DNA of 64,000 bases from Escherichia coli (GTDB lineage: Bacteria > Pseudomonadota > Gammaproteobacteria > Enterobacterales > Enterobacteriaceae). This document shows, in pieces, positions 42,001 to 45,000 of the stretch (positions are counted from its first letter, which is position 1; each line of letters begins with the position of its first letter). Location: assembly GCF_001677475.2 (NCBI RefSeq), contig NZ_CP012498.1, one strand, 5' to 3'. Made by a program: the position numbers.

Positions 42001-45000
42001 CTGAGGCAGGCTGGTATTCAGTTGCTCAGAAGCCAAGATGCCAGAAAACTGCTGCAGATGACCAGAGAATGGCTGAATACAACAGGGGCAGCTCAGCAGT
42101 CACCGGAACATCGTAGCTGACGCCTTCGCGTTGCTCAGTTGTCCAACCCCGGAAACGGGAAAAAGCAAGTTTTCCCCGTCCCCGGCGTTTTCGGTATTAT
42201 TTAGTGAATGGCATTTGTCATATATACAAACATAATATCAACAAGATAAATTAACACGGAAAGCCCGATATTAATATTGGTTTCTTTTAACAGTGCTGAG
42301 GATTCATGAGAAATGGTCAGTGTTTTTCTGGTTTTGATTTGTTGTACCAGAAACCATGTATTAAGAATGGCGATAAGAAAATAGGCAAGGTAAATTGCGT
42401 TAACCATACTATCAACTCTCGTAAAATAAGTGAAAACAGAAACTCACAGCTATCTGACAGATAACGAACGATATCGTTATTATCTTTTTTAGGGGATTTT
42501 ACGTACAAACAGGTATGGAACAATTCGGGAAATGCTGATAATTATTAAGGTTATCAGATGATTAACCGACAGGCTGAAGTGTGGTACTATCGCTGCGGGT
42601 GTCTGAGCCTTTCTGGTTCAGGCAAGACGCAGGTACCAGAAATGCGAAGACCCCACTCGTTAATCCATTAACTCGTGAGGTCTGCATGAAGTTCCTAGCA
42701 GTTCTGATTGTAGCCTCTTCTTTGTAGAGAGGTCAAAGTTTTGTATGACGAAATATGCCCTTATCGGGTTGCTCGCCGTGTGCGCCACGGTGTTGTGTTT
42801 TTCACTGATATTCAGGGAACGGTTATGTGAACTGAATATTCACAGGGGAAATACAGTGGTGCAGGTAACTTTGGCCTACGAAGCACGGAAGTAAGCTGCC
42901 GGGCGGGGACGGAAGTCCCCGTTTTCCGGAAGTGTGAGGTATTTCAGGGGCAGACACCCGACATGCCAGAAACAGCCGGTCCCGCCCGGGGCCGGCATCC
43001 TGGTTAAGGCATTTCCAGCTTTTCAGTCATTTCATTATCAAAATCACATTAAACGGTCGTAATCAGACATGATTTGTGCGCCAACACAGATCATCGTCAC
43101 AACTTTCAAGTCGCTGATTTCAAAAAACTGTAGTATCCTCTACGAAACGATCCCTGTTTGAGAATTGAGGAGGCGAGATGTCGCAGACAGAAAATGCAGT
43201 GACCTCCTCATCAGGTACAAAGCGAGCATACCGAAAAGGTAATCCTCTGACGCTTGCAGAACGTCAGCAGGCATCTCTGGCAAGAAAACGTGCCACACAT
43301 AAAGAACTCAGAGTGTTCATTCCTGCTGCGTTAAAAGCGCAATTACAGGAGATGTGTGAAGCTGAAGGTGTTACTCAGGCTGAGATGATTGCTGAACTGA
43401 TAAAGCAGAAGAGTGCTTTCAGCTAACTAAAATGTAGCGACATCACATTCTTGCCTGTTTCTGGTGTGCGTGATAGATTGCTGATCGTTTAAGGAATTTT
43501 GTGGCTGGCCACGCCATAAGGTGGCAGGGAACTGGTTCTGATGTGGATGTACAGGAGCCAGAAAAGTGAAAACCCCGATAATCTCCTTCAAGTTTGGCGA
43601 CATGAAAGATTACCGGGGCCCCATAAAACCGCATAGCCAACAATCAAGCTATGTGGGGAGTATAGTTATATGCCCGGAAAAATTCAAGACCTCTTTCTGT
43701 GCTCACTCCTTCTGCGCATTGTAAGTGCTGGATGGTGTGGCTGAGCTTCAACAAACTTATTACCGCCAGGTAAAGAACCCGAATCCGGTGTTCACACCCC
43801 GTGAAGGAGCAGGAACGCTGCCGTTCTGCGAAAAACTGATGGAAAAGGCGGTGGGCTTCACCTCCCGTTTTGATTTCGCCATTCATGTGGCACATGCCCG
43901 CTCCCGGGGCCTGCGTCGACGCATGCCACCGGTACTGCGTCGCCGGGCTATTGATGCGTTGCTGCAGGGGCTGTGTTTCCACTATGACCCGCTGGCCAAC
44001 CGCGTCCAGTGCTCCATCACCACGCTGGCCATTGAGTGCGGACTGGCGACGGAGTCTGCTGCCGGAAAACTCTCCATCACCCGGGCCACACGGGCCCTGA
44101 CGTTCCTTGCAGAGCTGGGACTGATTACCTACCAGACGGAATATGACCCGCTTATCGGGTGCTACATTCCGACCGATATCACGTTCACACCGGCGCTGTT
44201 TGCCGCCCTTGATGTGTCTGAGGATGCAGTGGCAGCTGCGCGCCGCAGTCGTGTTGAATGGGAAAACAGGCAGCGCAAAAAGCAGGGACTGAATGCACTG
44301 GGTATGGATGAACTAATGGCGAAAGCCTGGCGTTTTGTGCGTGAGCGTTTCCGTAGTTACCAGACAGAGCTTAAGTCCCGTGGAATAAAGCGTGCCCGTG
44401 CGCGTCGCGATGCGGACAGGCAGCGTCAGGATATCGTCACCCTGGTGAAACGGCAGCTGACGCGTGAAATCGCGGAAGGACGTTTCACTGGCAATCATGA
44501 GGCTGTAAAACGCGAAGTGGAGCGTCGTGTGAAGGAGCGCATGATTCTGTCACGTAACTGTAATTACAGCCGGCTGGCCACCGCTTCCCCCTGAAAGTAA
44601 CCTGCACTGAATAATCCGGGCCCGCGCCGGAGGCATCTGCACGCCTGAAGCCTGTCCGCGAACAAAAAAGCAGCGCCATATACAAAAAACAACCTCATCA
44701 TCCACCTTCTGGTGCATCCGGTTTCCCCTGTTTTTGATACAAAACACGCCTCACAGACGGGAAATTTTGCTTATCCACATTAAACTGCAAGGGTCTTCTC
44801 CATAAAGTTACAACCGTTCATGTCATAAAGCGCCAGCCGCCAGCCTTACAGGGTGCAATGTATCTTTTAAACACCTGTTTATATCTCCTTTAAACTACTT
44901 AACTACATTCATTTAAAAAGAAAACCTATTCACTGCCTGTCCTTTGGACAGACAGATATGCACCTCCCACCGCAAGCGGCGGGCCCCGACCGGAGCCACT

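Follow-up and report, generated by a model that had tools for sequence, protein, structure and literature searches.

Locus and genomic surroundings

We analysed a window of 64,000 nucleotides of Escherichia coli DNA, in which the genes for FinO, an SNase nuclease, a DUF2726 protein, the srnB toxin, a RepB-type regulator (copB/repA2), CopA and IncFII RepA (repA1) follow one another in this order:

39688-40248, FinO
40765-41238, SNase
41531-42120, DUF2726
42745-42894, plus strand, toxin gene: 49-aa Hok/Gef protein, ATG start, 49 codons (Pfam match and identity to the F srnB toxin)
43178-43426, RepB-type regulator
43564-43652, CopA
43725-44594, IncFII RepA

The toxin gene thus occupies the classical position of srnB on F-like plasmids, between finO-side genes and copB/repA2 of an IncFII-type replicon, and the order of the genes is the same in F and pSFO157. 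The srnB system is a well-known "plasmid addiction" module of F-like plasmids, in which a small membrane toxin is silenced by an antisense RNA.

The 49-aa ORF at 42745-42894 had been assigned to the Hok family by the first-pass annotation, and the protein indeed matches the Pfam family HOK_GEF (PF01848), scoring 37.3 bits where the cut-off is 22 (E 2e-9). It is identical in 49/49 amino acids to the F srnB toxin (WP_001312851.1; NC_002483, 2926-3075), and the same protein is encoded by pSFO157 and other plasmids. Matches to two NCBIfam Hok models were far under the curated cut-offs (34 versus 89 and 33 versus 73).

The toxin mRNA

The features read for the toxin mRNA outside its translated regions are:

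42562-42590, plus strand, putative toxin-mRNA promoter (read from the sequence and placed by homology and position)
42597-42757, plus strand, structured 5' leader of the toxin mRNA (covariance-model match to Rfam RF01794, 'sok')
42597-42605, plus strand, 5' element GGGUGUCUG, tac-like (minimum-energy folds)
42648-42683, plus strand, hairpin with the leader's Shine-Dalgarno sequence (SD) in its 3' arm; the antisense body is its complement (folds)
42951-42959, plus strand, fbi-like 3' fold-back element CAGACACCC, the complement of the mRNA 5' end (fold)
42975-43005, plus strand, terminal G+C-rich hairpin (42975-42996) and tail AUCCUGGUU (fold; conserved in the aligned loci)

The putative promoter consists of a -35 element TTAACC (42562-42567), a 17-nt spacer, and a TGn motif with the -10 element TACTAT (42585-42590). 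It ends 7 nt upstream of the position aligned with position 1 of RF01794, which gives a predicted mRNA 5' end at 42597. The promoter is weak (8/12 consensus) and was not listed in the consensus scan because it falls under the scan's threshold of 9/12. Its -10 element is kept in 11/11 aligned loci, and the -35 side splits two plasmid groups.

The search of Rfam for sok and hok elements proposed by the first-pass annotation returned RF01794 at 81.3 bits, above the gathering score of 59 (E 1.7e-16), and with full-length coverage (model positions 1-157), but on the toxin strand; the match, therefore, identifies the leader of the mRNA rather than the antisense gene. RF01794 also matches the sense leaders of F flm, of a pnd-like locus of an IncI plasmid and of pT267A. 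The match ends at the toxin AUG in flm and in the pnd-like locus, and about 10 nt past the AUG in pT267A, as in the window. A match to a further RNA model, HOTAIRM1_5, had an E of 0.78, i.e. the level of chance.

We considered whether the toxin gene might be a short chance ORF in an intergenic spacer, accompanied by a spurious RNA match. All that would suit this explanation is that the ORF is small and that the NCBIfam scores lie under their thresholds; we take it to be practically excluded by the Rfam match with its E value, by the Pfam score above the cut-off and by the identity to the F protein. Furthermore, the identical protein is annotated in thousands of plasmids, with about 1,900 PLSDB plasmids encoding the toxin at an identity of at least 99%, and substitutions in the ORF are mostly synonymous. 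Among 5,426 complete E. coli genomes, 2,004 contain the locus itself, as do about 2,900 PLSDB plasmids; it thus recurs more than chance would allow.

In the full-length RNA, the 5' element is predicted to pair with 42951-42959. This duplex has a free energy of -22.7 kcal/mol, equalled by just 1 of 300 shuffled 5' ends, and the minimum-energy fold of the full-length RNA closes the 5' end on 42951-42959 (z = -7.9). When the RNA is shortened from the 3' side in silico, the 5' end is predicted to refold into an alternative hairpin, with 42597-42605 pairing with 42616-42624. Compensatory changes preserve the predicted 5'/3' pairing across four subfamilies; the equivalent pairs are GGCGCUU/AAGCGCC in flm, GGGCGC/GCGCCC in the pnd-like locus and GGGUGCUUG/CAAGCACCC in pT267A. 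The hairpin at 42648-42683, which aligns with the second helix of RF01794, appears in the folds of both the full-length and the shortened RNA. Minimum-energy folds miss some of the elements described for R1; for example, the leader SD is partly paired in both forms.

The first-pass annotation had ended the locus at 42900, which omits the 3' UTR with the fold-back element and the terminal hairpin, and the unit is about 100 nt longer, reaching approximately 43005. The terminal hairpin and its tail probably form the 3' end of a full-length mRNA of about 400-410 nt. The hairpin was not listed by the terminator scan because it has no T-run. The scan did report a terminator-like site at 42774-42792, which we rejected: it lies inside the toxin ORF, and the number of such sites is that expected by chance (1 found, 0.9 expected).

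A candidate antisense RNA

On the minus strand we found the following:

42707-42736, minus strand, putative antisense-RNA promoter (promoter-like site, 10/12 consensus matches)
42638-42700, minus strand, predicted SrnC/Sok-type antisense RNA of about 63 nt, its likely ends (~42700 to ~42638) placed with the help of the fold

The room for a sok-type antisense RNA that had been noted from the sequence alone is thus filled by a promoter-like site followed by a hairpin and a U-rich tail. The promoter-like site has a -35 element TTGACC (42736-42731), an 18-nt spacer and a -10 element TACAAT (42712-42707). Both hexamers are invariant in 11 aligned loci, and the position of the site relative to ...AGCCTCTT is that of the corresponding region of F flm. 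With the start set 7 nt past the -10 element, the predicted RNA begins with a 5' tail that is single-stranded and complementary to the ATG and codons 2-5 of the leader, continues as a hairpin and finishes with the U-rich tail UUCGCAUUUCU; it has a folding energy of -29.6 kcal/mol (z -4.4) and covers the ribosome-binding site of the leader. The promoter-like site and the hairpin point to an antisense gene at this locus, which, like the RNA structures of the mRNA, is a prediction.

The complement of the predicted antisense 5' tail is variable: at 42690-42705, 10 of 17 columns vary among the 11 loci. Such clustering of differences beneath the tail may reflect specificity groups among srnB loci.

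Identity of the module

The locus at 42562-43005 is very probably a type I toxin-antitoxin (post-segregational killing) module of the hok/sok family, of the srnB/srnC type, at the position srnB has in F. The toxin is that of F srnB and the sequence elements of such a module are present. A hok/srnB-type system near RepFIIA was what the first-pass annotation had expected, and the toxin identity, the synteny with F and pSFO157 and the RF01794 score above threshold all agree with it. The module is thus an already known, ordinary system. It can be annotated as extending over approximately 42562-43005, with a predicted antisense gene on the minus strand.

The srnB-srnC system of F is listed in reviews as a hok/sok homologue that shares its gene arrangement and regulation (PMC4147584, PMC3874152). 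Killing by F srnB (post-segregational or induced by rifampicin), processing of the mRNA 3' end and cleavage of the duplex by RNase III are known from the literature that these two reviews cite. By analogy with what has been published on R1, F and R483, the same killing cycle may operate at the locus in the window.

A truncated leader reading frame

Translation of the toxin mRNA involves three further features:

42677-42727, plus strand, leader translation unit of 13 codons, MKFLAVLIVASSL, with SD GAGG (42677-42680), ATG (42686-42688) and TAG (42725-42727)
42727-42732, plus strand, toxin SD GAGAGG (alignments)
42856-42879, plus strand, stretch within the coding region that would sequester the toxin start (minimum-energy and partition-function folds)

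The first-pass annotation had described a short mok-like frame upstream of, and overlapping with, the toxin gene. The string atgaagttcctagca with which it was said to start is present, and in the alignments its ATG at 42686 coincides with the ATG that opens the leader in F srnB, flm and the pnd-like locus. The overlap, however, does not exist: after 13 codons the frame ends at the TAG, which leaves 17 nt before the toxin ATG. The window allele thus has no mok-type frame crossing the toxin start, although the SD and ATG are at the homologous position. In contrast, the leader is open to the toxin ATG in 9/9 other srnB-type loci translated (F, pSFO157 and seven others), of which seven (six distinct sequences) have the leader in the toxin's frame, the other two finishing in an ATGA overlap; for pT267A, a UUG-started ATGA leader was read off the alignment. 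As the stop codon is a point difference in an otherwise orthologous locus, it is no argument against common descent.

We also considered an N-terminally extended product of 68 aa for the window allele, and rejected it because the F-type frame, open from 42679, contains no ATG, GTG or TTG start. A GTG at 42581 lies upstream of the predicted mRNA start. No Pfam match was found for the other small ORFs at 42558-42671 (plus strand), 42581-42727 (plus strand) and 42562-42687 (minus strand).

A second difference lies between the toxin SD and ATG, which are 12 nt apart in the window allele versus 9 nt in other alleles in the alignments, owing to a 3-nt insertion (TTG) at 42741-42743. In the predicted folds, the stretch at 42856-42879 pairs with the SD, spacer and AUG of the toxin. 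The partition function gives the SD an unpaired probability of 0.09 in all variants folded. In the window allele, the toxin start is predicted to lie in an uninterrupted 18-bp helix, with an unpaired probability of the spacer of 0.04 versus 0.20-0.25 in relatives. The idea that the insertion frees the toxin start, and thereby compensates for the TAG, was therefore discarded, since in the folding model it closes the start further.

The allele is rare. The 81-nt segment bearing it had no exact match among 72,556 plasmids, and the whole locus was found at an identity of at least 99% in just 1 of 2,162 matching RefSeq E. coli records. The truncated leader occurs in one other plasmid only, where its surroundings differ; the allele has, therefore, persisted through at least some divergence. 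As a separate observation, the srnB allele of pZH193 is clearly decayed, with a mutated toxin SD and a toxin cut to 44 aa.

Functional state of the allele

Since the leader is truncated before the toxin start, the toxin may be under-expressed, and we expect the output of the window allele to be reduced, possibly abolished. When a ribosome is modelled at the TAG, under a simple assumption about its footprint, the toxin AUG region is 0.42 unpaired, versus 1.00 in ATGA alleles.

A possible but less likely alternative is that the allele is a silenced remnant, in which the nonsense codon fully uncouples translation of the toxin from that of the leader, so that the RNAs would still be made, with neither toxin nor plasmid stabilisation. 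For R1, one study reports that toxicity is lost when mok carries a stop codon upstream of the hok start, such stops having been recovered as loss-of-toxicity mutations (PMC9841398). The predicted closure of the toxin start in the long helix, the stretched SD-ATG spacing, the rarity of the allele and the natural occurrence of decayed srnB alleles such as that of pZH193 are consistent with silencing. On the other hand, the toxin ORF is intact and encodes the F protein, neither the two promoters nor the 5'/3' elements are altered, leader translation extends right to the toxin SD, and the allele is common to two plasmids with different surroundings.

The R1 data can also be read the other way. According to the same study, mok must be translated 'at least up to the hok SD', but need not be translated past the hok start (PMC9841398). 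The leader in the window reaches the toxin SD, and under this conclusion full activity could therefore be retained, the stop codon and the 3-nt insertion being neutral or compensating for each other. Consistent with this, the sequence and frame of the leader peptide are clearly irrelevant, because alleles use two frames, and all other elements are conserved. Nevertheless, we regard a fully functional killing module as doubtful, given that the leader stays open as far as the toxin ATG in all other alleles examined, that the insertion closes the toxin start further in the folding model, and that the allele is rare.

It seems to us unlikely that the allele is functional with a leader ending upstream of the toxin start, and that the differences at 42690-42705 represent diversifying 'specificity alleles'. 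If the former were true, coupling in the hok family would need only the arrival of the ribosome at the toxin SD; if the latter were, co-resident F-like plasmids would be kept from silencing each other's srnB toxin. The rare leader allele is the sole point of research value of the locus, since it offers a natural test of the extent of leader translation that hok-family toxins require; neither it nor the variation under the antisense tail would alter the present understanding of the system.

Proposed mechanism

In the mechanism that we propose for the module, the weak plus-strand promoter would produce a stable mRNA of about 400 nt, the 5' end of which (42597-42605) would pair with 42951-42959, making the RNA closed to both ribosomes and the antisense RNA. 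Slow trimming from the 3' end would remove 42951-42959, whereupon the 5' end would refold and the leader start (SD 42677-42680, ATG 42686) would open. The strong minus-strand promoter would supply a short-lived antisense RNA of about 63 nt (~42700 to 42638), which would pair over the leader start, block leader translation and expose the duplex to RNase III. The toxin start would be buried with 42856-42879, so that toxin would be made only when ribosomes translating the leader open the helix. In cells without the plasmid, the antisense RNA would be the first to disappear, and they would be killed by the 49-aa membrane toxin.

In the window allele, the leader ends where the toxin SD begins, at its 5' edge, and 3 additional bases widen the SD-ATG spacing; coupling would thus come down to partial melting of the helix by the terminating ribosome, and re-initiation 17 nt downstream of the leader stop would be needed for toxin synthesis.

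Comparison with known systems

We compared the locus with F as NC_002483, and with hok of R1 as represented by its F twin, flm.

The srnB-srnC locus of F (NC_002483, ~2720-3190) encodes the identical toxin and lies, as in the window, directly upstream of a copB/repA2-type regulator of an IncFII-type replicon. It shares the mRNA 5' end GGGTGTCTGAGCC, the 3' fold-back CAGACACCC, the antisense promoter hexamers and the target hairpin. Unlike in the window, its leader is read from an ATG in the toxin's frame, which results in the 68-aa 'SrnB' frame; the leader in the window is 1 nt shorter and in another frame, stops at a TAG 17 nt before the toxin ATG, and is followed by 3 nt inserted between SD and ATG of the toxin. 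The two loci also differ in the sequence upstream of the -10 element and, within the stretch between 42686 and 42706 that is complementary to the antisense 5' tail, at 8 of 22 columns.

The nearest intact relative of the window allele is the srnB-type allele of pSFO157 (NC_009602, 2780-2929), a type also present in 11 other plasmids among the best matches listed. It has the same leader codons 1-11, reading frame, antisense-tail region and toxin, but CAG in place of the TAG and no TTG insertion, and therefore a 19-codon leader with a TGA overlapping the toxin ATG (ATGA). It also lacks the AT-rich 380-nt upstream segment of the window.

The hok/sok system of R1, or flm of F (L012, 6809-7240), resembles the locus in its RF01794 leader (91.8 bits for flm), its Hok/Gef toxin, the aligned position of the leader ATG, the place of the antisense promoter and a fold-back with compensatory changes. 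However, its toxin is just 39% identical over 41 aa, the tac/fbi sequences differ, and the mok/flmC-type leader, in a third frame arrangement, continues deep into the toxin gene.

The pndA-pndB type of IncI/IncB plasmids, represented by the pnd-like locus of pLV23529-CTX-M-8 (L013), which had the best RF01794 score (131.7 bits), shares the architecture and the 5'/3' fold-back, but its toxin is about 46% identical and it adjoins trbA of the IncI transfer region.

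Identity and distribution of the toxin gene

The first-pass annotation read the locus as a hok/srnB-type toxin gene, and this is borne out. The ATG-started ORF of 49 codons (42745-42894, + strand; product MTKYALIGLLAVCATVLCFSLIFRERLCELNIHRGNTVVQVTLAYEARK) hits Pfam HOK_GEF across the full domain (37.3 bits, cut-off 22), and two NCBIfam Hok models match with scores under their curated cut-offs. Its product is identical to WP_001312851.1, the annotated product of positions 2926-3075 in plasmid F (NC_002483), which lie just upstream of repA(copB), a replication regulator; this is the srnB position. 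The proposed Rfam search gave a match to RF01794 ('sok'), on the toxin strand, above the gathering score. The locus is an srnB/srnC-type hok/sok module.

A 551-nt query around the ORF matched 2,909 PLSDB plasmids and a 441-nt query 2,004 of 5,426 complete E. coli genomes, nearly all on F-like plasmids, where the product is annotated as 'Hok/Gef family protein' or 'type I toxin-antitoxin system Hok family toxin'. The toxin is encoded at at least 99% identity by 1,900 plasmids (tblastn).

Leader and predicted fold-back of the toxin mRNA

The features of the sense strand are as follows.

42562-42567, +, putative mRNA promoter -35, TTAACC, 17 nt upstream of the -10
42585-42590, +, putative mRNA promoter -10, TACTAT (in TGgTACTAT), seven bases upstream of 42597
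42597-42757, +, RF01794 match, 81.3 bits (gathering score 59)
42727-42732, +, toxin Shine–Dalgarno sequence (SD), GAGAGG, paired in the predicted fold
42975-42996, +, terminal hairpin predicted in the 42597-43005 fold

RF01794, although named 'sok antitoxin', hit the sense strand of the toxin mRNA at each of the four loci tested: the window, F flm (6808-6979, 91.8 bits), the IncI pnd-like locus of pLV23529-CTX-M-8 (428-585, 131.7 bits) and pT267A (460-611, 78.4 bits). The match therefore marks the mRNA leader and is on the wrong strand for an antisense gene. The matched stretch covers the leader from the mRNA 5′ end and finishes at the toxin AUG in flm and the pnd-like locus, and ~10 nt beyond the AUG in pT267A and the window; this puts the 5′ end of the window's mRNA at 42597. 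The putative promoter upstream (TTAACC/TACTAT) is weak, and a consensus promoter scan did not list 42562-42590.

The predicted fold of 42597-43005 (-180.4 kcal/mol, z = -7.9) pairs a 3′ element, CAGACACCC (42951-42959), with the first nine bases of the predicted mRNA. This element and the terminal hairpin lie beyond 42900, where the first-pass annotation had ended the locus too early. With the 3′ part removed, a local 5′-end hairpin (42600-42624) is predicted.

Pairing of the mRNA ends
Window and F srnB: 5′ GGGUGUCUG, 3′ CAGACACCC
F flm: 5′ GGCGCUU, 3′ AAGCGCC
IncI pnd-like: 5′ GGGCGC, 3′ GCGCCC
pT267A: 5′ GGGUGCUUG, 3′ CAAGCACCC

Since the pairing recurs in other subfamilies with different sequences, it is maintained by compensatory changes. 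The toxin SD, spacer and AUG are predicted to pair with a coding-region stretch (42856-42879), the SD having an unpaired probability of 0.09 in all variants tested. Two aligned loci, L006 and L007, carry a 17-nt deletion (equivalent of window 42910-42926) that takes out half of a G+C-rich hairpin right after the toxin stop (42905-42920), so this hairpin is dispensable or variable.

A truncated leader allele

A mok-like frame overlapping the toxin gene had also been proposed. The named string is there, with an ATG at 42686 and GAGG at 42677-42680 (+ strand), but the frame has only 13 codons, and its TAG (42725-42727) leaves a 17-nt gap before the toxin ATG, so there is no overlap. When the window was aligned with F, pSFO157 and eight further plasmids, three arrangements emerged (L numbers are aligned plasmid loci).

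Leader arrangements
In frame with the toxin: F, L001, L004, L005, L006, L009; leader ATG 57 nt upstream, 68-aa reading frame; by inspection, also the decayed L008
ATGA overlap: pSFO157, p1878-163k, L007; 1 nt shorter, 19 codons, final TGA overlapping the toxin ATG; also pT267A, with a UUG start, as read from the alignment
Truncated: window, pOkiPb01695_1; pSFO157 type with CAG to TAG at codon 14, a silent C to T and a 3-nt insertion between SD and ATG

Translation up to the toxin start is thus conserved in two different frames, which fits the published view that translation of mok matters and its product does not (PMC9841398). The window's truncated allele alone departs from a leader reaching the toxin start. 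None of 72,556 plasmids matches the 81-nt segment carrying it exactly (best 93.8-99%); the p1878-type segment has 704 exact matches. In RefSeq E. coli, pOkiPb01695_1 is the only record matching the locus at 99% or more.

L008 (pZH193, NZ_CP014498, 300-700) has AAGATG in place of the toxin SD GAGAGG, two amino-acid changes and a deletion that shortens the toxin to 44 aa; this common srnB variant looks decayed. Among the matches listed, three other records show the same kind of partial match (93.3% identity, query 65-436).

Among the suppressors of toxicity recovered in plasmid R1 were nonsense mutations that interrupt mok before the hok start, and the authors concluded that translation is needed at least as far as the hok SD (PMC9841398). 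In the window, the leader ends right at the 5′ edge of the toxin SD, so the R1 data leave the status of the allele unsettled. Nothing in the folding models points to compensation by the 3-nt insertion: it lengthens the sequestering helix (spacer unpaired probability 0.04 versus 0.20-0.25 in relatives), and a ribosome modelled at the TAG, under a simple footprint assumption, leaves the AUG region 0.42 unpaired versus 1.00 in ATGA alleles. For this allele, a silent toxin and a fully active one are each less likely than not, full activity being slightly the less probable of the two; attenuated output takes up the remaining probability.

Predicted antisense RNA

42736-42731, -, antisense promoter-like -35, TTGACC, 18-nt spacer to the -10
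42712-42707, -, antisense promoter-like -10, TACAAT, near-consensus

Both hexamers are unchanged across 11 aligned loci, and the site is equivalent in position to the corresponding flm region. The predicted RNA of ~63 nt (~42700 to 42638, - strand; fold z -4.4) would start ~7 nt past the -10. It would open with a single-stranded 5′ tail that is the complement of the leader ATG and codons 2-5, continue with a hairpin complementary to 42648-42683 and finish in the tail UUCGCAUUUCU.

Differences among the 11 loci cluster at 42690-42705, the complement of the 5′ tail (10 of 17 columns variable versus 63 of 402 overall; hypergeometric P ~4e-5, for a region chosen post hoc and loci taken from a spread listing). 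At least five distinct alleles of this 16-nt stretch occur among them (L001-L011). In the R1 paradigm, recognition lies with the antisense 5′ tail, and srnB alleles differing here may be specificity variants.

As expected from the family, a stable, closed mRNA would be slowly activated at its 3′ end, the antisense RNA would block leader translation, leading to RNase III decay, and toxin would be produced only after the cell has lost the plasmid (PMC4147584, PMC9841398).

Genomic surroundings

The locus lies in an ordinary F-like backbone.

ends 38394, traI
between traI and FinO, traX
39688-40248, FinO
40765-41238, staphylococcal-nuclease homologue
41531-42120, DUF2726 gene, before the locus
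43178-43426, RepB-type regulator, after the locus
43564-43652, -, CopA RNA
43725-44594, IncFII RepA

The DUF2726 gene is broken across two frames (ORFs 41531-41935 and 41773-42120), and tblastn with the intact 197-aa pSFO157 protein places the frame switch near 41833; either the gene is a frameshifted pseudogene or the sequence has an error here. Between it and the srnB -10 is an AT-rich segment of ~380 nt (42190-42568, 32-37% GC), missing from pSFO157 and F and found in only 19 PLSDB records. Because homology starts again only at 42569, this segment includes the srnB -35 hexamer. A hydrophobic 68-aa ORF within it (42201-42407, -) has no above-cut-off Pfam match.

For 36000-48000 (12 kb), PLSDB holds no near-identical plasmid; the best matches span just 72-74% at ~97-98% identity. 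The top four come from Escherichia sp. isolated from the faeces of humans or cattle, and E. coli plasmids of food and animal origin rank next.

Rfam matches to AS-pc02, AS-traI, AS-traG, traJ 5′ UTR and FinP (40431-40613 (-), 35973-36049 (-), 25148-25233 (-) and 4581-4690) represent the usual antisense and regulatory RNAs of an F-like transfer region. The srnB/srnC-type system is already known, its toxin being routinely annotated by genome pipelines, and the gene order around srnB in pSFO157 and F is the same as in the window.
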